Source: Promethearchaeota archaeon
Lineage (GTDB): Archaea; Asgardarchaeota; Lokiarchaeia; Sigyniarchaeales; SOKP01
DNA: 11,632 bases
Direction of reading: 5' to 3'
Assembly: GCA_016930515.1 (NCBI GenBank)
Contig: JAFGGO010000058.1
Location: 1 to 11,632 of the forward strand
Shown here: positions 1 to 11,490 of the stretch, one piece after another
Layout: every line of letters starts with the position of its first letter
Position numbering within the stretch: position 1 is the stretch's first letter
Translations under genes and position numbers: made by a program
The notes under the pieces: model-generated
Told to the model about the DNA's origin: nothing
The model's input: only the letters and a program-made list of their open reading frames with translations
Database searches by the model: none

Positions 1-302
1 AAAAATATGTTTTATTAATTTTAATTGATAATTTATTAATAGTTATAAATAATTCCCCTAATATTTAATTTTTTACAATTTATCCTTACTTGTAACAAAA
101 ACGATCTCAAAAAAGCGACTACAAGCATTTTATAAACAACTCGTTCTTAAATTGGCTTTATCAACGATTATAATAAAAGAATTTTAAAAAAAATAAGATA
201 TGGACTTTTAAAATATGAAAATTCCTTTGTTTCTTAACTTTTAATAAGAATTTAAAATCACGCGCGAAAAACAACAAGATATCTTTCTGGTAATATTTTT
301 CA

Positions 303-317
303 ATAAAAATATAAATA
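303..317 (+). promoter_or_regulatory. Candidate archaeal BRE/TATA promoter for the Pro-rich gene
   Basis: A-rich run followed by TATAAATA at 310-317, about 85 bp upstream of the GTG. The background is very AT-rich, so specificity is low. Confidence 0.35.
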
Positions 318-401
318 CGAAATTATATTATTACAATAAATAGTACTATTTAACTAGTTATTCTATTTTTCAAATAATAAGTTAGAGGAAATGATTAAAC
401 C

Positions 402-1121
402 GTGGCTGATAAAGACCAAAAGAAAATCAACAGAGTTATAAACTTCGTCAAGAAGGGATTATCCGGATTAGCGGACGAACTTGACAATACCGTCAAAGCG
501 ATAAACGACTTTACAAAATCATTGAAAAAAGCCCAAAAAGACCTTAAAGAAGTTTCAGTTGAAGAAACGGTACAAACTGTAAGTACTTCCTCTAAAAAGG
601 TTGCGGCTCCTGCAGGTGGAGTTAAGGCAGCAGCAGCAAACACGTTATTTTCTTTATTGAGCGGTAATGAAGGACAAGCGCCCGTAGCCCCTAGTCCCGC
701 TATGACTGCAGCTCCAAAAGCGCCCGCACCTCCAGATGGCGGTGGACCTCCCAAGGCACCGGGTGGCGGTGGACCTCCCAAGGCACCGGGTGGCGGCGGA
801 CCTCCCAAGGCACCGGGTGGCGGCGGACCCCCCAAGGCACCGGGTGGCGGCGGCGGACCTCCATCGAGAGCAGGATTACCTCCTGCACCAAAATTACCTC
901 CAACTAGTGGCGGGCCTCCAACAGCACCTCCAGGTGGTGCGCCACCCTCACCACATGCAAAAAGACCCGGACCTCCAGCACCTCCAGGGGGAAGTAGGCC
1001 TCCAGCACCTCCAGGTCCGCCCGCAGCTGCTAGTACTGCAGGTGGAGGGTTGAGTTCTCTAAGAGACGAGATGTTGGACGAATTAACCCGGCTCAAGAAG
1101 ATTATGAGAGGAGAATCTTAA
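402..1121 (+). CDS. Pro/Gly-rich protein: N-terminal coiled coil, (GGGPPKAPG)n proline-rich linker, C-terminal WH2-like helix (putative actin-binding regulator)
   Basis: 239-aa ORF. GTG start at 402 is the first possible start (in-frame TAA at 396-398), with purine-rich AGAGGAA at 384-390. Heptad-patterned helix at aa ~9-51, low-complexity P/G/A region at aa ~93-213, terminal amphipathic helix LRDEMLDELTRLKKI, T-rich tract after the stop. Coding status is well supported; the function is inferred. Confidence 0.8.
   Translation: MADKDQKKINRVINFVKKGLSGLADELDNTVKAINDFTKSLKKAQKDLKEVSVEETVQTVSTSSKKVAAPAGGVKAAAANTLFSLLSGNEGQAPVAPSPAMTAAPKAPAPPDGGGPPKAPGGGGPPKAPGGGGPPKAPGGGGPPKAPGGGGGPPSRAGLPPAPKLPPTSGGPPTAPPGGAPPSPHAKRPGPPAPPGGSRPPAPPGPPAAASTAGGGLSSLRDEMLDELTRLKKIMRGES
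738..863 (+). repeat. In-frame 27-bp tandem repeat, 4 full copies plus a partial copy, encoding GGGPPKAPG
   Basis: Unit ggcggYggaccYcccaaggcaccgggt at 738, 765, 792 and 819, then a partial copy with one extra ggc codon at 846-863. The full copies differ only at two synonymous positions. Confidence 0.97.
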
Positions 1122-2463: not shown

Positions 2464-2820
2464 ATGGAAGAAAATTCTGAAAAAATTCCCATTGTCGAAG
2501 AAGAATCAGATTCAAAACTGTTCAATAAAATCAAACAAATTAACACTCCTATAAAGAACGAACTCTTAATTACATTATTAGACGGACAATGGCATCCTGA
2601 ATCGGAACTCATTCGAACTGCTAAAAAAGAGCGAAATTATGCTGGTGCCGTCTTGGTAGGCACCATGTTAAACAGCATCAATTCTTTAGGCCAGGATGTA
2701 TTATTGAATAAGAAAATCATTGATGGTGAATGGCACTTTAAAATCTCTAACAATTATGTTGGACTGACAAGGGCCGCGTTTACAAGGACTGCTTATAGGA
2801 AATTAGATCAAAGCGATTAA
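2464..2820 (+). CDS. Small protein with probable winged helix-turn-helix fold
   Basis: 118 aa with ATG and an SD-like motif. Pattern helix (IKNELLITLLDG), strand (QWH), helix (ESELIRTAKK), helix (AVLVGTMLNSI), beta-hairpin wing (LLNKKIIDGEWHFKIS). The fold is inferred from pattern only. Confidence 0.7.
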   Translation: MEENSEKIPIVEEESDSKLFNKIKQINTPIKNELLITLLDGQWHPESELIRTAKKERNYAGAVLVGTMLNSINSLGQDVLLNKKIIDGEWHFKISNNYVGLTRAAFTRTAYRKLDQSD

Positions 2821-2836
2821 AAAAATCAAAATAGAC

Positions 2837-5023
2837 TCATTTTTTACTTTTTACGCATTTATTATTCTCTATTGAATAATCCTTGCATTGAGAACAAAAT
2901 CCCTTTCCAGAACGAGACTCTAGTCCTTCTTTCCAACATTTCGGGCATAAATAATAGTTAAACGCCTTCCCATTATTTTGTGTAGAAATTTTAAAAACAT
3001 CGAAACCACATATAGAACATTGTGTTTCCAGCATTGTTGCCCTTCCTTTTTTAGGAAGAGGCAAGTATGTCTTACAGGCGTTATCCGTGCAGGCTAAAAA
3101 CCTTTTATTTTTTAAATTAATAAATTTCATTTGTGATTGTATACATGTCGGACATTTTCCAACGGTTAGCTTAAAACGTTCTGATGGATTGTAATTGTTA
3201 TAGGTGTTTTTTTTTTGTTCTATTTCTGGTAAAATCTTTTGGAACTCTTCTTTAGCTGAAAGAAAATTGTCAAAGAGCATTAAAAATTCTTTTCTCACTT
3301 CCTCTATAACATCATTCATTTTTCGCTGGCCTTCCTTTATTTGCTTCAATTTATCTTCTACTCTTTTCGTAAATGAAGGTTTTAAAAATGGCAACCAGAC
3401 TTGTACGAGAATTTGCATCAAAAAAACACCCAAATCTGTAACTAAAAATTTGTTTTTTTCTTTTCTGATAACCTTACGGCTTAACATTGTTTGGATGATT
3501 TGAGGTCTAGTAGCTTTCGTGCCTAATCCGTGCTTCTCCATGAGCTTTAATAGCGTGGGATCTGTATATCGAGGTGGAGGCGTCGTTTCTTTTTCGAATA
3601 ACTCTATATTTTGTACGGGTATCGTGTTCCCTTCGATTTGAATTTCCAAATCATAATGTGGTTTTAAAAATGGTGCAATTTCGAAGAATCCTAAATGAAT
3701 AAGAGAAACGATCTGAGCTTTAAATGGCTCATCCTTGATTAATAAATCTAAATCCTGTCGAGATTCCGTTGCCTCTTCCCCGAATAAGGCTAAATAATGC
3801 CTTGAAAGCGTATTATATACTTTTGTGCGAAAGCCACCACTTAATCTCTTATCATTTAGTTCAATGCTTTCCAAGGGCGTTATGGGGGGATGATCTCCCT
3901 CGTCTTTTTTTCCTTTTGTTGGAATAACTCGTTTGTTAGTTAATTGTGTTTTAGTATATTTACCATATATAGAATGCAAAGTAAATTTAGTTAAAATCGT
4001 CAGGTGATCGAAATTATTTTTGTAAATGTCGCTTTCTGTTCTTGGGTACGAGATGATTTTTTCTAAATATAAATCGTTCATTGTGTCCATCGCTTGCTTA
4101 GCGCTTATCTTAAGCGTTTTAGTTAGTAAGATTAACGCTTTATTTGTATTTAGGGGAGAAGGAGGTTTTCTGTTTACTTTATTCTGATTAAAATTTGTTA
4201 TTATTGCCAATTTTTCTTCCTTTATTTTTTCGTAAATAGCCCTTGCAACTGTTTCATTGTTTTTGGAAAAAGGATTTGCCTTATGGTGAGCTTTAAAAGA
4301 AGAATTTTTAGCTATTAGAATTGCATCAATAACGAAATATTTTTCGGGAACGAATTCTTCTATCTCTTTTTCTTTTAAATATAATAAATATAATGTAGAG
4401 GTTTGAACCCTACCAATAGAAGTCCAATTGACTCCAAATTGCTGCAACGCTTGCTTTAATGAATTGCTAACCTCGCGAGTTGCCGAAAATCCAATAAAAG
4501 CATCGATTATAGATCTTGCTTCCCCACTTTCTGCCCAAAAATATTTTGGTGAGATTAAATTATTAAATTTTGATTGTATTTCGTTTGGTTGTAAAGAACT
4601 TATCCACAGTTGCGATATTTTAATAGAAGGACGACTTTTTAGAACATATGGTAAAGCGTCCATTATTCCAATATTACACCCCTCGATGTCCGCATCTGTA
4701 CCGATCACACAATGATCGCTATTCAGGGCGATTTCTTTTAATACTTTCATATAAGGACTCAAACCTCTGATTAAATATTTTTTAATTGCGCTTGGGTTTG
4801 TAATGATATTTCGAGGTGCAGGATATTTCCAATTAGAAAAATCAGGTGTGTTCCTATGCTCTTGTAAATGGCCACGTAAAGGAATTACTACGATATCCTT
4901 ATCAATAACATTGTAAATATATATATATTTACTTTTTTTAATAACTTGAACCTGACCTAATGCCTCTGCGATTGCTCTGGCTGCTTTGTTTTTCTCCGAA
5001 ATAATTATTGTTGTCATTATCAA
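2837..5023 (-). CDS. topA: DNA topoisomerase type IA (archaeal TopA/Topo III-like) with C-terminal zinc ribbons
   Basis: TOPRIM IIISEK...GHL...TDADIEG, SIGRVQT, catalytic ISYPRTES, HPPITP, LGTKATR, C-terminal CxxC clusters. Start is either TTG 5023 or ATG 5017. Confidence 0.96.
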   Translation of the reverse strand: MIMTTIIISEKNKAARAIAEALGQVQVIKKSKYIYIYNVIDKDIVVIPLRGHLQEHRNTPDFSNWKYPAPRNIITNPSAIKKYLIRGLSPYMKVLKEIALNSDHCVIGTDADIEGCNIGIMDALPYVLKSRPSIKISQLWISSLQPNEIQSKFNNLISPKYFWAESGEARSIIDAFIGFSATREVSNSLKQALQQFGVNWTSIGRVQTSTLYLLYLKEKEIEEFVPEKYFVIDAILIAKNSSFKAHHKANPFSKNNETVARAIYEKIKEEKLAIITNFNQNKVNRKPPSPLNTNKALILLTKTLKISAKQAMDTMNDLYLEKIISYPRTESDIYKNNFDHLTILTKFTLHSIYGKYTKTQLTNKRVIPTKGKKDEGDHPPITPLESIELNDKRLSGGFRTKVYNTLSRHYLALFGEEATESRQDLDLLIKDEPFKAQIVSLIHLGFFEIAPFLKPHYDLEIQIEGNTIPVQNIELFEKETTPPPRYTDPTLLKLMEKHGLGTKATRPQIIQTMLSRKVIRKEKNKFLVTDLGVFLMQILVQVWLPFLKPSFTKRVEDKLKQIKEGQRKMNDVIEEVRKEFLMLFDNFLSAKEEFQKILPEIEQKKNTYNNYNPSERFKLTVGKCPTCIQSQMKFINLKNKRFLACTDNACKTYLPLPKKGRATMLETQCSICGFDVFKISTQNNGKAFNYYLCPKCWKEGLESRSGKGFCSQCKDYSIENNKCVKSKK

Positions 5024-5165: not shown

Positions 5166-8100
5166 TTATTTTTTTCTTGGGATAGTAAAGCAAAATTCAG
5201 ATCCAAGATTTTTTCCTTGGGATTTTACCCAAATCTTTCCTCCATGTGCTTCGACGATACCTTTGGTTATATACAAGCCTAAACCGCTTCCTCTCTCTAA
5301 AATTGAGAAGGTTTCGATGTTTTGATCGATAGTGACGAACTTTCTAAATAATTGATCGATCTCTTTCTTGCGTAATCCAAGACCACTATCCTGAACCATA
5401 CATAAGATTTTTTCGCCCTGATCTTCTGCGAATATCCTAATTTTTCCTCTCATTTTCGAAAATTTAATCGCATTTGAAATAAGATTTAAAAACACTTGCG
5501 TTATTCGGAACTCGTCTATTTCAAAAGAGAGATTTTCGCTCATATCTATATCTATTTCAAGATTCTTTTGTCTAATTTGATAATCCAATTCAGAAACACA
5601 ATCTTTTATAATATTCTTTATTTTTTTTTCTTTTAGGTTTAATTCAATCTTTTTTGCGTCTATGATTAATACATCCATTAATTGTTCGATGTATTTCTCG
5701 AGCCTTTTGGAATTATTTAAAACCCTTTCTAAATCCTCTTTTATTTCAAGATGTAAATCCTTATCTCTGGTTAATATTAAATCCACAAATCCTATAATCG
5801 ATATCAATGGTGTTTTTAATTCGTGTGATGCAATCGTTATAAAATCAGTCTTTAATTTATCCAATTTCTTGAGTTCTATGTTTTGTTCTCTTAATTTCCT
5901 CTCAGAATCTATTAAATTTTCTTCAAACTCTTTTTTTTCGGTATTATCGATCATTGTCGTTAACAACGCGTATTTTTCTCTAAATCTAATGGTCGTGGCA
6001 TAAGCATCAATCCATCGTGGTTTTCCCGATTTTGTAAGGATCCGAAATGAAATTTGAGACGGATATTCGATGGGTAATTTTGCTAAATTATGAAGCCTGG
6101 TAAGTTCTACGATGTTACTAGTAAGAAAGAGAAAATCGTCGGGATAGAAGGCTTTTTTTAGTTCGAATTTTTTCCAACTCAATATCTCGTCGATAGTATA
6201 GCCCGATATATCTGAGACGGCGCTATTAGCATATTTTACCCTTCCATCCTGCAATATTGCGATTCCCATTAATGATTGTTCGGTAATTGTTCGAAAAAGC
6301 GATTCGGATTCTTTTAATTTCGCTTCGGCTTTATTTCTTTCAGTAATATCCTCGGCAGCACATACCACATATTCTACCTCTCCGTGTTTATTAAGCTTGG
6401 GTGTTTTCGTTATTGAGAATAGTCTTTGAGCTCCCATCTTATTTGTAATATATTCTTCTGTACGGATCTGTATTTTTTTTCTGAACACTTCCTTGTTACT
6501 TGCTAAAAATTGATTTAAATTTTTTTTTGAGAGAATAGACTTTAAGGATTTATTTTCACATAACTCCTTTTCTATGCCTAAAAAATTAGCGTGTGCTTTA
6601 TTTACTGCCCCATATGCATGTTCGTTCTCTAAATACCAAATCTGAGTTTCTATATTGTCCAAAAGAAGCGTTTGTTCTTCGTTTTTAATAATTAATTGTT
6701 CCTTGGATGTGCTTAACTCTTTTGTTCTTTCTTGAATTTGATTTTCAAGTTCTTTATTAAACTCTTGTAGCTTTATCTCTAACATTTTTGCTTCTGAAAT
6801 ATCACGCAATATTATTTGAAAAAAGATTTCCTTACCAATTCTAATAATCGTCGTTTCAACAGTTATCCAGATTGTTTTGTTTTCAATTCCCATGGCTTTA
6901 AATTCCACTGGCTCCAAGCAATCGTGCTTTTCAAAATTAGATTTTAATTGTTCAATTGGGGGATGTTTATATTCACTTCCTTTGATTTTAGAAAGTGTTT
7001 CTACAAAAGAACTTCCAATAACCTTATTTTTTGGGATATTCGATATGTAGCGATTAAATCCTTCATTACAATCAACAATATATCCATTTGAATCAACGAT
7101 CCAAATACCAAATGGAGAGTTGTCGAACAAATTCCTATATAATTTTTCTGATTTTTTAAGCTTACCTTCAACCGTTTTAAGTTCATTAATGTCCTGTATG
7201 ATGACTTGGACCATCTTTTCTCCGCCTAATGTGAAAAAAGCGCATTGATATAATACCCAATTTGGTGTCATATCTTTCTTATGAAGTTGTATTTCCTTAA
7301 CCTTAACGGACTTCCCCTTGATTAAGTCCATGAAATCCTCCATTATTATTGGAAGGTATTTTTTTGGAAACAAGTCGTGTTCTGTTAAAGTAGAGCCAAT
7401 TAATTCGTTCGCTTTAAATCCAGATAATTTTTCTGCCGTTGCGTTAAACCCTACCATTTCGCCTTTCATATTATAAATAACTATAGCATTTGGAGATGTC
7501 TCAAATAATGTTCTATATCTTTCTTCAGATTCTATTAATTTTCTCTCGATTTCGTTATACTGAGTGATCTTTCTGAGATATCCTGCGATACCTTGTGGCT
7601 TGTTTTTTTGATCCCTTAAAAAAGAGACGAGTAATTCTATTAAAACCATTGACCCCTTTTTATGTATAAATTCTAACTCAATAAAGATAACACGGTTAAT
7701 AATTCTATCCAATTTAGTTTCATAGGCAAGTTCTTCCCTGAAAGCATTACGCATCTTTTTAATAGAACTGGGACTCATAAATTCTTCAAATTTTTTTCTC
7801 TTAATCTCCTCAGGTGTATAACCAAGAACTTGAATCACTGAAGGCGCAATAAACATATATTCGAGATTTAGATTCATAGTAAAGGCTAGTTCGCTCGCTT
7901 TTTCTGTAAAAGATCGATAATTTTCAAGTGATTGTTCTAATAATTTTTCCTTATCCTTATTTCTCGTGATATTTCTTAAAAGTAGGATATATTTTAAAGA
8001 TCCCTGCTCGTCTTCATAAAGCATGCCTCGAGTATCGAACCATAATGACTTTTTTTTCTCCTGAATAAATTGTATTTCTTTAGAAATCATGCTTGATTTT

Positions 8101-8669
8101 TTAAGATCATTCAAGAAATCATTTACAGCATTTATATCTTTCGAGCCTATGAATTCAAAGAGACTCCTGTTTTTTATTAGTTCTTCGGATAAATTAGAAT
8201 TACATTTTTCATTGAGCCTTATTAATTTTTGTATATTATATTTATCATCCAGAACGAGTATAATGTCGTCGAATTTTTCAATGAATAAATGAATTATTTT
8301 TTCAATGCTAAATGATCGAGCATTAAGGAAATCAAGAATCTTGATTGTACCTCTAAATCCTTGTAAAAATCTATGCTTGTCAATAAAAGGTTTTACCTTT
8401 AATAAAACTTCAAAAACTCCCTTATTTTTGCTTTTAAGCGGTAATTTAAATTCAGTTAAGCGTGAAAGGTTTTGAGATTGAACATCAGGAAATAAATCGA
8501 AAAGATTAAGATCGGATGCTTGTATTTTTTCTAATCCCATAAATTCTTTGAATCCTTCGCTATGATAGGTAAACCGTCCAAATTTATCAGTTTCCCATAT
8601 CCAATCGCTTATATCCTCTAATATATCCTTACTAATTTCCATTAATTTTGTAAAGTCGTTTGCTTGCAT
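5166..8669 (-). CDS. Cytoplasmic multi-PAS sensor histidine kinase (about 7 PAS + HisKA + HATPase_c)
   Basis: H-box FITIASHELKTPL, N-box QVFLNLISNAIKF, G1 QDSGLG, G2 GSGLGLYI. Repeated PAS starts (e.g. LFETSPNAIVIYNMKG, LFDNSPFGIWIVDSNG) and PAC ends (NIT, KIT, DIN, DIS, DIT, DNT). No transmembrane stretch. AGGGGA upstream of the ATG. Confidence 0.96.
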   Translation of the reverse strand: MQANDFTKLMEISKDILEDISDWIWETDKFGRFTYHSEGFKEFMGLEKIQASDLNLFDLFPDVQSQNLSRLTEFKLPLKSKNKGVFEVLLKVKPFIDKHRFLQGFRGTIKILDFLNARSFSIEKIIHLFIEKFDDIILVLDDKYNIQKLIRLNEKCNSNLSEELIKNRSLFEFIGSKDINAVNDFLNDLKKSSMISKEIQFIQEKKKSLWFDTRGMLYEDEQGSLKYILLLRNITRNKDKEKLLEQSLENYRSFTEKASELAFTMNLNLEYMFIAPSVIQVLGYTPEEIKRKKFEEFMSPSSIKKMRNAFREELAYETKLDRIINRVIFIELEFIHKKGSMVLIELLVSFLRDQKNKPQGIAGYLRKITQYNEIERKLIESEERYRTLFETSPNAIVIYNMKGEMVGFNATAEKLSGFKANELIGSTLTEHDLFPKKYLPIIMEDFMDLIKGKSVKVKEIQLHKKDMTPNWVLYQCAFFTLGGEKMVQVIIQDINELKTVEGKLKKSEKLYRNLFDNSPFGIWIVDSNGYIVDCNEGFNRYISNIPKNKVIGSSFVETLSKIKGSEYKHPPIEQLKSNFEKHDCLEPVEFKAMGIENKTIWITVETTIIRIGKEIFFQIILRDISEAKMLEIKLQEFNKELENQIQERTKELSTSKEQLIIKNEEQTLLLDNIETQIWYLENEHAYGAVNKAHANFLGIEKELCENKSLKSILSKKNLNQFLASNKEVFRKKIQIRTEEYITNKMGAQRLFSITKTPKLNKHGEVEYVVCAAEDITERNKAEAKLKESESLFRTITEQSLMGIAILQDGRVKYANSAVSDISGYTIDEILSWKKFELKKAFYPDDFLFLTSNIVELTRLHNLAKLPIEYPSQISFRILTKSGKPRWIDAYATTIRFREKYALLTTMIDNTEKKEFEENLIDSERKLREQNIELKKLDKLKTDFITIASHELKTPLISIIGFVDLILTRDKDLHLEIKEDLERVLNNSKRLEKYIEQLMDVLIIDAKKIELNLKEKKIKNIIKDCVSELDYQIRQKNLEIDIDMSENLSFEIDEFRITQVFLNLISNAIKFSKMRGKIRIFAEDQGEKILCMVQDSGLGLRKKEIDQLFRKFVTIDQNIETFSILERGSGLGLYITKGIVEAHGGKIWVKSQGKNLGSEFCFTIPRKK

Positions 8670-9066: not shown

Positions 9067-9675
9067 ATGAAGGAACATATTACACCATCCTTTGAAATAG
9101 ATGAGAAAGGAAGGGTTTATTGCAGAATGCATACAAAATATCGAAAACACATAGAAAAAAAAGACTATTTTGAATATATGTTATTGGAAAAAGATTTGAC
9201 TTGCATGCGCTGTGGTCATTACAAGAGTGACGATTGTTATTTCCCTCGTTCTGAATTGGATAAAATTGTTCACGATCAAGAGAAGGAAAAACATTTTTCG
9301 TGCAGATTGTGCGGTTCTCAAATTAAAATAATGTTAACGATTGTCCAAAAACTATATTATGAAGAAAAATTTAATCTTAAGATGCAATTGATATGTTGCG
9401 ATTGCCATCAAAAACTTTCAGAGAATCGATATAGACAAGAATCGTTAAATAAAATCTTGGCTTTGGGATTTATCGTTTCTGTGAGCCTTTTCTTTTTTAT
9501 TTACGCTTCAATCATAAGCTTTTTACTTGGAACAAATTTAATAACATTTATCTTTTTATTTATTTGTTGGTGCTTTATTGTTTTTCTTCCAGCAAGAAAG
9601 ATTGTGCGTATTTGTCGTGGATTGATATACTATAAGAAATTTTTTTGTAAAAACAAGTTATTGAGATTAACCTAA
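9067..9675 (+). CDS. Hypothetical membrane protein with Cys/His-rich putative Zn-binding N-terminal domain and two C-terminal TM helices
   Basis: 202 aa; C19xxH22, C46xxC49xH51, C57, C79xxC82, C110xxC113; hydrophobic segments at aa ~130-155 and ~158-175; basic C-terminal tail. Confidence 0.75.
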   Translation: MKEHITPSFEIDEKGRVYCRMHTKYRKHIEKKDYFEYMLLEKDLTCMRCGHYKSDDCYFPRSELDKIVHDQEKEKHFSCRLCGSQIKIMLTIVQKLYYEEKFNLKMQLICCDCHQKLSENRYRQESLNKILALGFIVSVSLFFFIYASIISFLLGTNLITFIFLFICWCFIVFLPARKIVRICRGLIYYKKFFCKNKLLRLT

Positions 9676-10776
9676 TGTTCCTGCCCAGCCCCTTACGAGT
9701 TTTCTCATTTTTTTTTGTTTTTCAATTATACTTAGAATCTCCTTTTTATTTTTGGATCTTAAATCGTCTATTTCGGGAACGAAGTCATATTTTATGAAAA
9801 GGTCTCGACATTCATTCGATATCAATCCTTTCTTTATCTTTTGAGGGTTATTTACAAAGCTAGGGTATTCAAGCACCCAATCTTTCAAAAAATCCTCAAT
9901 ATTATTTATAGATTCAAAAACAGGTAAAACACCTAAATTATTAGGAGTTGTGATGGCAATTGTTGCTCTGGATATAGTATATTCATTTCCATTAAACGAT
10001 ACGGCTATCCCCCTTTCTTGTTTTAGCCTTTGAAGCATATTTATGTCTGTTATTGAGTCACCCAGAGCAATCATATCGGAGATAGGCGTGCCTGTCCTTT
10101 TAGAAATATCTTCTATTGCTAATTCTTTTCTCTTTCCTCCTCGAACTTTAATCTTATTCATTATCCTAAAATAATCTGAATCTTCGCTTTTCCAAAAAAA
10201 ATCGTTTAAATCCTCTAAAACCGTTTCCAAATCTTTATCGTTGTCTAAATATTTTTTAAAGATTTGTTTTACTAAAATATGAACTGAATTTTCTATACTA
10301 TTAACTCCCTTCTTTAACAGATCGATGTTAAAATCCGTGCAATAGACATGATCTTGAGGTATCGATAATGCGCCAGTTATCGTGTGAGCAAATTGGGTAT
10401 AACTTGTAGAAATAACATAAACATCCCATTCCCTATGTAAGATGCCCATTAGATCCATACAGCCGGGTAATAATCCCAGATTTTGTTGTGCTAAACTCAA
10501 TAATTCGGTTTCTGAATAACATGCAAGATATAAGGGCGCCATGATTCTCAAAGTATCTCCTGGTTGATATTCAGAAATATTCAATCTTTCTTTGATCCCG
10601 GGTGTATCAATGATGTAATCGTCGTAATTTGAGATCATAAAAAAGAACTCTCCCATGTCGTAATCTTGCAACGAAAGTTCCGGTCTATTACTTAATAACT
10701 TGCCAATATCAGCAGCAAAATCAACGGTACTGATTGGCCCTTCGAGGTCCCAGCAACATACTTTTTTATTTTTCAA
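9667..10776 (-). CDS. HAD-superfamily hydrolase, EhaR / COG4030-like
   Basis: Motif I variant WDLEGP, YDD, YQPGDTL, motif II ISTSYTQF, motif III GGKRK, motif IV GDSITD, FNGN. Matches my recollection of the archaeal COG4030 family. TTG start; no eha operon in the window. Confidence 0.85.
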   Translation of the reverse strand: MKNKKVCCWDLEGPISTVDFAADIGKLLSNRPELSLQDYDMGEFFFMISNYDDYIIDTPGIKERLNISEYQPGDTLRIMAPLYLACYSETELLSLAQQNLGLLPGCMDLMGILHREWDVYVISTSYTQFAHTITGALSIPQDHVYCTDFNIDLLKKGVNSIENSVHILVKQIFKKYLDNDKDLETVLEDLNDFFWKSEDSDYFRIMNKIKVRGGKRKELAIEDISKRTGTPISDMIALGDSITDINMLQRLKQERGIAVSFNGNEYTISRATIAITTPNNLGVLPVFESINNIEDFLKDWVLEYPSFVNNPQKIKKGLISNECRDLFIKYDFVPEIDDLRSKNKKEILSIIEKQKKMRKLVRGWAGTLG

Positions 10777-10992: not shown

Positions 10993-11490
10993 CTAACGTG
11001 TTTTTAAAGATTTTTTTAAAATTTCTTCGATGCTACGGTTTTTTTTAAATTCTTTTTCTACGATATAACGCCATTCTGGTTCGATAGTGTCGAAAGCTTT
11101 TTGAGTGAGCTTTTTGAGTTCTTCATCTTCTGACGAAAGAAAAGGGCCAATTAAGACTAAAGCCCTCTTGTCTTTTAGATTGATAAAGCTTTCAATGATG
11201 TGTATGATCGTGAATTTATCTGGATTTTCGGCATCCATTTCTTCTTTGAGTTTTGAAGCGATTATCATGGTTGCTTTAGGATCACCAATTCTTCCCATGG
11301 CTTCTATTATGCGATTGCACACCATCTTGTCTTTTTCTTTTTGTAGCGCCCTGCACATAAGATTGGTTGCCCTTCCGTCCTTCATAAATCCTAACTCCCT
11401 GGCAGCTTCGCCCCTTTCCTGCCAATTCTCGTCGTGAAAAAGCTTATTGATGAGGCTGTTAAACCTTTCGTTTACTTCATGCCATGTCAT
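10993..11490 (-). CDS. HEAT-repeat (PBS-lyase HEAT-like) protein
   Basis: 165 aa with helical-hairpin repeats: DENWQERGEAARELG, EKDKMVCNRIIEAMGRIGDPKA, IIESFINLKDKRA, LSSEDEELKKLTQKAF. Confidence 0.9.
   Translation of the reverse strand: MTWHEVNERFNSLINKLFHDENWQERGEAARELGFMKDGRATNLMCRALQKEKDKMVCNRIIEAMGRIGDPKATMIIASKLKEEMDAENPDKFTIIHIIESFINLKDKRALVLIGPFLSSEDEELKKLTQKAFDTIEPEWRYIVEKEFKKNRSIEEILKKSLKTR

Follow-up and report, generated by a model that had tools for sequence, protein, structure and literature searches.

A conserved C-terminal helix on a proline-rich Asgard protein, a candidate docking module found in several protein architectures

The window analysed here is the whole 11.6-kb contig JAFGGO010000058.1 (C108 in our numbering) of a Promethearchaeota archaeon, the genome of which comprises 4.0 Mb and is 94% complete. 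Gene P0001 at the start of this contig (positions 402-1121, + strand; GTG start according to the list of open reading frames (ORFs) and the translation) encodes a putative tether or adaptor protein of 239 amino acids (aa) which ends in a glycine-capped amphipathic helix. This helix is conserved far beyond chance, recurs in Asgard proteins of other architectures, is combined with different N-terminal heads and shows no similarity to the profile of WH2, the actin-binding motif proposed for it by the first-pass annotation. We propose that the tail would be the business end of a tether built from an N-terminal anchor or assembly helix, a flexible proline-rich arm and the one-faced terminal helix. 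The helix would serve as a portable protein-protein docking module plugging into a partner common to many Asgard proteins, and tether and soluble carriers (small GTPase/zinc-ribbon proteins, Sec23/24-like proteins) would meet on the same hub. That the helix docks, and onto what, we infer; as receptor we tentatively favour, at somewhat less than an even chance, a folded helical groove other than actin, MIT-type domains included.

Conservation and predicted structure of the C-terminal helix

Nucleotides 1041-1121 correspond to codons 214-239 plus the stop codon and encode GGGLSSLRDEMLDELTRLKKIMRGES, which directly follows a Pro/Gly-rich stretch. The putative docking helix with its glycine caps, GGG-LSSLRDEMLDELTRLKKIM-RG-ES (1041-1118, + strand), was delimited by invariant alignment columns, AlphaFold2, a tail profile and a helical wheel. 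A word-indexed search yielded 218 homologues of P0001 at an expectation (E) value ≤0.01, about 180-270 aa in length and encoded in Asgard metagenome-assembled genomes; all of them are named hypothetical and none carries a functional name. A homologue is present in 36 of 41 relatives. The sequence GGGL[SG]SLRDEML[DE]EL[NTS]RLKKIMRG[ED] forms the C-terminus in all 120 of the homologues listed.

The tail was aligned from 58 homologues, including order-level relatives with only 40-48% overall identity to P0001. Thirteen of 22 positions are invariant (L220, R221, E223, M224, L225, E227, L228, R230, L231, K232, I234, M235 and G237) and seven more are conserved to at least 90% (G214, G216, L217, S219, D222, K233 and R236), unlike the proline-rich middle of the protein, which varies in length and sequence. 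A profile of 30 tail positions scores 68-78 bits in relatives, and matches to it were found in 243 of the 301 genomes sampled from the phylum (80 of 90 high-quality genomes, 52 of 70 genera). Since P0001 is conserved at the protein level at both ends, the gene on the + strand is supported; a minus-strand ORF overlapping it (395-1096) was set aside as a by-product of the GC-rich repeat region.

AlphaFold2, run on the alignment, predicts residues 217-235 (1050-1106, + strand) as one continuous helix of 19 residues which includes the LKKI stretch (predicted local distance difference test score, pLDDT, about 93); the model is that of a free monomer. Glycines flank the helix on both sides, with G214-G216 before and G237 after it. 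On the helical wheel I234, L220, L231, M224, L217/M235 and L228 make one hydrophobic stripe, which is flanked by the invariant residues E223, E227 and R230 on one side and by R221, K232 and L225 on the other. The conserved arc extends from about 320 to 180 degrees; the opposite face (200-300 degrees), formed by positions 218, 222, 226, 229 and 233, is variable. In this model the terminal helix reads as a one-faced docking helix. Alignment, tail profile and AlphaFold2 thus confirm the first-pass annotation in so far as a conserved amphipathic helix ends a proline-rich protein, and its remark that the tail lacks an acidic/Trp segment was borne out.

Comparison of the whole protein with Pfam gave no family above the cut-off; the whole protein and its pieces alike yielded nothing beyond coiled-coil noise below the threshold (TMP_N, Laminin_II, DASH_Duo1 and others), which was disregarded. 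A PDB sequence search with the tail returned leucine-rich-repeat proteins only, by way of summed weak repeats, and these matches were judged to be due to chance. The literature search retrieved no description of the P0001 family or its motif and no paper containing the string LRDEML.

Head, arm and other carriers of the helix

Upstream of the tail P0001 starts with a long helix (residues 2-50; 405-551, + strand; AlphaFold2, pLDDT >90), in which K8, R11, F15, G19, L20, L23, L27, I34, F37, S40 and L41 are conserved and which is likely an assembly or anchoring element. A second, short helix with the pattern K..AA.TLF.LLSG (residues 74-87; 621-662, + strand) was recognized by conservation, A78, A79, L82 and L86 being invariant and F83 and L85 conserved to at least 90%; AlphaFold2 places a helix at residues 74-86 with low confidence. 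It is followed by a disordered Pro/Gly/Ala-rich arm (residues 88-213; 663-1040, + strand) without secondary structure (pLDDT 46-68), and the model leaves the complete stretch between the second short helix and the terminal helix (87-216) unstructured. Within the variable arm the proline motif GLPPAPKLPP (residues 158-167; 873-902, + strand) is conserved, with L159, P160, P163 and P166 at 90% or more. K..AA.TLF.LLSG and LPPAPKLPP (159-167) are likely additional binding sites of the arm. The arm also contains a 27-bp tandem repeat encoding GGGGPPKAP units (737-853, + strand; 4.3 copies, period 27 and 97% matches in Tandem Repeats Finder). The copy number of this repeat and the length of the arm vary among homologues, and a third arm motif, FAKRP in most homologues, reads HAKRP here.

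In the distant families f9, f11, f17 and f31 the orthologue comprises 270-350 aa and starts with a transmembrane helix followed by Arg/Lys residues, then a coiled-coil region, the proline-rich arm and the terminal helix (L073:4183-5088, L075:4946-5929, L076:4759-5769 and L077:4677-5477). By the positive-inside rule arm and helix of these orthologues would lie in the cytoplasm. The transmembrane head in distant families points to a common plan of anchor, flexible arm and docking helix. Such a plan is also seen in ZipA and thaumarchaeal CdvA, membrane tethers of cytoskeletal or ESCRT polymers, in which a membrane anchor and a long flexible linker carry a small element at the C-terminus, by which a polymer or its remodelling ATPase is captured; unlike the orthologues discussed here, neither protein has homology to P0001. 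Thaumarchaeal CdvA carries MIM2 (PMC8970359).

The tail profile was searched exhaustively against 1.84 billion representative proteins and gave 52 matches at E≤1e-3, including P0001-type proteins and fragments. The unit LR[DE]EML.EL.RL[KRQ].IM[RG]G also occurs, singly or in tandem, in architectures other than that of P0001. In one of them a Ras/Roc GTPase domain is followed by a PPPP stretch, the unit and a zinc-ribbon module (CPxC...NH...GIPCCxC); in another, two or three tandem units stand before this zinc ribbon, after which a further domain follows; the unit lies at the C-terminus of GTPase-like and LRV-repeat proteins, and one carrier continues into a TIR domain. A Pfam scan of 35 carriers detected Ras and Roc in five of them and an actin-related domain in none. 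Those carriers that have names are Asgard hypothetical proteins. Genomes of the own family contain a second match to the tail profile, the proteins concerned being Sec23/24-like (Pfam Sec23_trunk and Sec23_BS) or a small zinc-ribbon protein. The Sec23/24-like carriers, which come from two genomes of this family, consist of zinc finger, trunk and beta-sandwich, with the helix just after the beta-sandwich (L070:3365-5029, - strand; L071:3054-4802, + strand); a tblastn search of the own genome detected no orthologue of them. Carriers agree in their Leu, Arg, Glu and Met positions, and the helix is portable across Asgard proteins.

In the own genome P0001 is accompanied by one weak second carrier (C16:7258-8025, - strand; L068:3259-4014), which reached an E value of 0.006 in the six-frame ORFs. 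This protein of 252 aa ends in ...APAGGLRTEMMNELNRMKSLKRTQRYKQLK, which looks like a weaker copy of the putative docking helix, and has a sub-threshold match to DUF4140 (22.6 bits, cut-off 27).

The distribution over carriers bears on self-association, the alternative already named by the first-pass annotation, according to which a bundle of 2-4 helices would oligomerise the tether or would zip the membrane tether to soluble carriers and recruit them. The broad hydrophobic face with its 3-4-4-3-4 spacing (L217, L220, M224, L228, L231, M235), complemented by L225 and I234, would suit such a bundle, and all carriers conserve this face regardless of their architecture. Tandem copies within single proteins also agree with it, and one tether per genome together with patchy other carriers fits a receptor-client scheme made from one module. 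Nevertheless, nineteen residues are short for a stable coiled coil, the invariant charges R221, E223, E227 and R230 suit a specific groove at least as well, and the helix is no less conserved in the own genome, where hardly any carrier besides the tether exists. We regard self-association as unlikely, though a serious possibility.

The zinc ribbon that follows the helix in small-GTPase and tandem-helix proteins has the pattern F..F...CPxCG..NH..YL..FYF...GIPCCxCFKK and is apparently an undescribed Asgard module (P0131, P0164, P0170, P0172, P0129, P0132, P0143, P0152 and, in genome G000, C73:1912-2703). The last of these (contig C73:1912-2703) is the single copy in the own genome and has no docking-type helix.

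Candidate partners and the WH2 proposal

The closest sequence resemblance of the tail, although a weak one, is to the C-terminal helix of Asgard ESCRT-III, which has been described as MIM1-like (PMC7240154). The genome has two ESCRT-III (Snf7) genes on contigs C85 and C76, the products of which end in ...ISELEKELDRLKQND and ...VQAEIEKLKKELNS, and encodes a Vps4 with MIT domain (C85:32722-33981). Across the order ESCRT-III tails read [IV].[ED]LE.E[LI].[KR]LK. When the P0001 tail was aligned with them by hhalign, a probability of 55-65% and a score of 19.4-19.8 were obtained over 12 columns (dEML.EL.RLKk against.dLEkEl.kLK.). Among the controls, 150 column shuffles scored 8.0 ± 2.2 and none reached 19.4; the reversed alignment scored 9.9, other 30-column windows of ESCRT-III at most 11.7 and the N-terminal helix of P0001 15.2. 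MIM1 of ESCRT-III (Vps2/24/46 class), the ligand of the Vps4 MIT domain, is likewise a C-terminal Leu-rich amphipathic helix behind a flexible, partly proline-rich linker, and E-[LM]-x-x-E-L-x-[RK]-L-K is common to the P0001 tail and the ESCRT-III tails of the same order. Unlike MIM1 proteins, P0001 lacks the Snf7 core (no Snf7 match in Pfam) and has four more conserved residues (IMRG) behind the shared part. Among the individual receptor candidates the most concrete is a three-helix bundle of the MIT type, as in Vps4, but taken by itself it is quite unlikely. The PPKAP units of the arm fit the loose MIM2 core pattern of PMC8970359, a pattern that would fit many proline-rich sequences.

The control value of the N-terminal helix, the next-highest against the tail profile (15.2 over 9 columns, GLSGLADE against GLSSLRDE), would be in line with an intramolecular latch of the tail on this helix. 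A latch would not explain, however, why the terminal helix is found in unrelated architectures without the N-terminal helix. Together with a membrane-binding amphipathic helix and a turnover signal, such a latch makes up a group of further explanations that we consider very unlikely. The membrane-binding helix was rejected because the acidic residues are unsuited to lipid binding.

Several observations weigh against a common docking hub and its MIT-type version. None of the tests identified a partner. In profile-to-sequence searches neither direction was significant, since the tail profile ranked ESCRT-IIIB only 44th among 59,355 ORFs (5.3 bits) and the ESCRT-III tail profile ranked P0001 only 674th, and the resemblance to MIM1 spans no more than 12 columns. 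No synteny of P0001-type genes with Vps4 or ESCRT genes was seen in the loci examined. With one strong and one weak carrier in the own genome, a hub with many clients is not evident there. Furthermore, the proline-rich arm and the neighbouring actin gene still fit a role in actin binding.

The actin role was the starting point of the first-pass annotation, which had read the tail as a C-terminal WH2-like motif. Like WH2 (PF02205; WASP, WIP and thymosin-beta4 type), the tail is a short modular amphipathic helix with a Leu-basic-basic-aliphatic stretch, follows a proline-rich region, sometimes occurs in tandem and is found in many architectures. However, hmmscan gave no match of Pfam WH2 to residues 200-239 or 150-239 at E values up to 10, and in a six-frame search of the own genome at the same limit the sole match of PF02205 lies in an unrelated place on contig C161. 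In canonical WH2 five to seven residues separate the helix from the LKKT/V motif. In P0001 only T229 and R230 stand between L228, the third hydrophobic residue, and L231, which leaves no flexible linker that would let LKKI run extended along actin; instead LKKI lies inside the continuous helix, and L231, I234 and M235 carry on its hydrophobic stripe. P0001 conserves, moreover, IMRG and positions with acidic residues or Arg at which WH2 shows no conservation. In the register of thymosin-beta4, L220 and M224 would be followed by LKKI at +11, provided that binding unwinds the latter half of the helix, and the argument from spacing is strong but not absolute.

Loss of LKKI from orthologues had been named beforehand as a finding that would refute the WH2 proposal. 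The orthologues of the order keep LKKI in the 58-sequence alignment, and the proposal was not refuted on this point; in other carriers and distant orthologues the third position is variable (A/E/R/N/Q/G/H/S/T) and the fourth is I, L, F or A. K233, the second Lys, belongs to the variable, solvent-exposed face and is replaced in other carriers by A, E, R, N, Q, G, H or S. Without a profile match, with LKKI inside the helix and with its second Lys on the variable face, the WH2 label for the tail is not supported. The tail also recalls EVH2 of Ena/VASP, including its F-actin-binding segment, in that a proline-rich region precedes a run of Gly and a helix with many E, M, L and basic residues. Unlike in Ena/VASP there is no EVH1, the assembly helix of P0001 is N-terminal, and VASP_tetra (PF08776) gave no match, neither in the own genome at E values up to 10 nor in the hmmscan of the tail. 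P0001 should hence not be annotated as WH2 or as a WASP/VASP homologue.

Binding to actin or an actin-related protein by another mode has to be weighed separately. The helix would then dock on Lokiactin or on the neighbouring paralogue, at the hydrophobic groove of the barbed end or at the filament side, working like WH2, the VASP F-actin-binding segment, arcadin-2 or ParR, and P0001 would be a membrane-to-actin tether or a factor for elongation or nucleation. Indeed, the gene adjoins an actin-family gene: a divergent actin paralogue of 372 aa (P0002; 1248-2366, + strand; Pfam Actin 5.8e-86) starts 126 bp downstream of P0001 in the same orientation, and within family f1, to which P0001 belongs, this order is kept in 13 of 19 loci, the actin paralogue lying within 1.5 kb downstream of the P0001 homologue. 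Among the four actin-family genes of the genome the paralogue ranks second; it is 40% identical to the best one, the Lokiactin-like gene on contig C111 (101705-102817). The succession of assembly/anchor domain, proline-rich arm and terminal helix parallels actin regulators and the pair arcadin-2/crenactin. Those carriers with tandem copies are reminiscent of nucleators with WH2 in tandem. The 17-residue C-terminal helix of arcadin-2 binds the hydrophobic groove of crenactin (PMC5173319). By 2022 no machinery for the nucleation of filaments had come to light in Asgard archaea (PMC9433394). Arcadin-2 of Pyrobaculum (PDB 5LY3; PMC5173319) and ParR of the ParR/ParM system resemble P0001 as prokaryotic proteins encoded beside an actin-family gene and in their layout, a conserved C-terminal helix on a flexible segment, which in those systems is the sole contact with the actin groove. 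The likeness to arcadin-2 is one of layout and not of sequence, for its contact relies on a Trp that is absent from the P0001 helix; moreover, the adjacency of P0001 to actin is limited to one Asgard family, and its helix is shared with non-cytoskeletal proteins.

Further points speak against actin as the partner, in addition to the missing WH2 and VASP_tetra matches and the position of LKKI. No actin gene was found near the P0001-type gene in the loci examined from f2, f3 and f4, which belong to the same order, and from f7, f9, f11, f17 and f31, and the other carriers have no actin-related domain. T-runs follow the stop codon of P0001 and a TATA-like TTTATATA is located about 30 nt before the ATG of the actin gene, so that the two genes are probably transcribed separately. 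The arm contains PP doublets instead of long polyproline, and Loki-type profilins have been reported not to bind polyproline (PMC9433394, PMC8410842). In favour of actin, Lokiactin is 72-100% identical across the phylum, as would be expected for the partner of an invariant helix. Against it, Lokiactin also occurs in families that gave no match to the motif, and since actin is near-universal (263 of 301 genomes) the phyletic comparison with Lokiactin is uninformative. Taken together, we consider actin binding, like self-association, unlikely, though a serious possibility. That the helix is an archaeal actin-docking module and a functional forerunner of WH2/VASP-type motifs, placed on a membrane tether, small GTPases and coat-like proteins, appears unlikely.

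Asgard archaea possess actin, profilin and gelsolin; to our knowledge no Asgard membrane linker has been described. Most of the Asgard genomes searched encode a member of the P0001 family, for which no name other than "hypothetical" is in use and which is laid out like a tether, for a membrane or for an assembly, that ends in a putative docking helix. The same helix is present on small GTPases and Sec23/24-like proteins, themselves components of trafficking of a eukaryote-like kind, and identification of its partner would thus bring to light a hub in the organisation of Asgard cells, be it actin, ESCRT/Vps4 or a new one. The partner would also bear on the origin of the coupling between cytoskeleton and membrane in eukaryotes. 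If the partner were actin, the helix would represent the missing link by which Asgard archaea connect filaments of Lokiactin with their membranes and with signalling by GTPases.

Gene neighbourhood of P0001

The most constant neighbour of P0001-type genes is a highly conserved protein of 86-91 aa (88 aa), encoded beside the P0001-type gene or within 2 kb of it, in varying orientations, in families f1, f5, f6, f7, f16 and f25. In family f1 this small protein is followed by the P0001-type gene, often a PIG-L deacetylase, the actin paralogue and a protein of 118 aa. The companion of the own genome is encoded at the very start of contig C87 (53-310; L072) and P0001 at that of C108; an AT-rich divergent promoter region (window 1-401) probably links the two contigs. 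AlphaFold2 gave a confident model of the companion (pLDDT 94), for which no clear match was found in the PDB (best Foldseek E value 0.19, best VIA-align Z 4.6) and none in the ESM Atlas.

With a single-sequence query the companion was not found in the motif-carrying families f9 (0 of 28), f17, f26 and f31, and in f11 it was found in 3 of 76 genomes. Its absence from the results for f9, f17, f26 and f31, which carry the motif, makes a role as receptor of the tail doubtful; the companion may go with the soluble N-terminal head instead of the tail. This distribution suggests that the transmembrane head and the 88-aa companion are two alternative ways to anchor the tether.

Genes next to the transmembrane-type orthologues encode RpiA, V-ATPase subunits and, once, an Arf-family GTPase. 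The neighbourhoods of the carriers P0172 and P0132 and of the transmembrane-type orthologues were considered as a clue to the partner and rejected as housekeeping (RpiA, V-ATPase D/F, purine genes); neither an actin nor an ESCRT gene was found in them.

The 118-aa protein of the window (2464-2820, + strand) has no Pfam match and follows the actin paralogue in all five wide-flank f1 loci examined. A scan of the window for bacterial promoters and terminators was set aside as not relevant to archaea. The remaining genes of the contig are ordinary, namely a topoisomerase with C-terminal zinc fingers (Topoisom_bac and Toprim; 2837-5023, - strand), a histidine kinase of 1167 aa with multiple PAS domains (5166-8669, - strand), a HAD-family hydrolase (9667-10776, - strand) and a HEAT-repeat protein (10993-11490, - strand).

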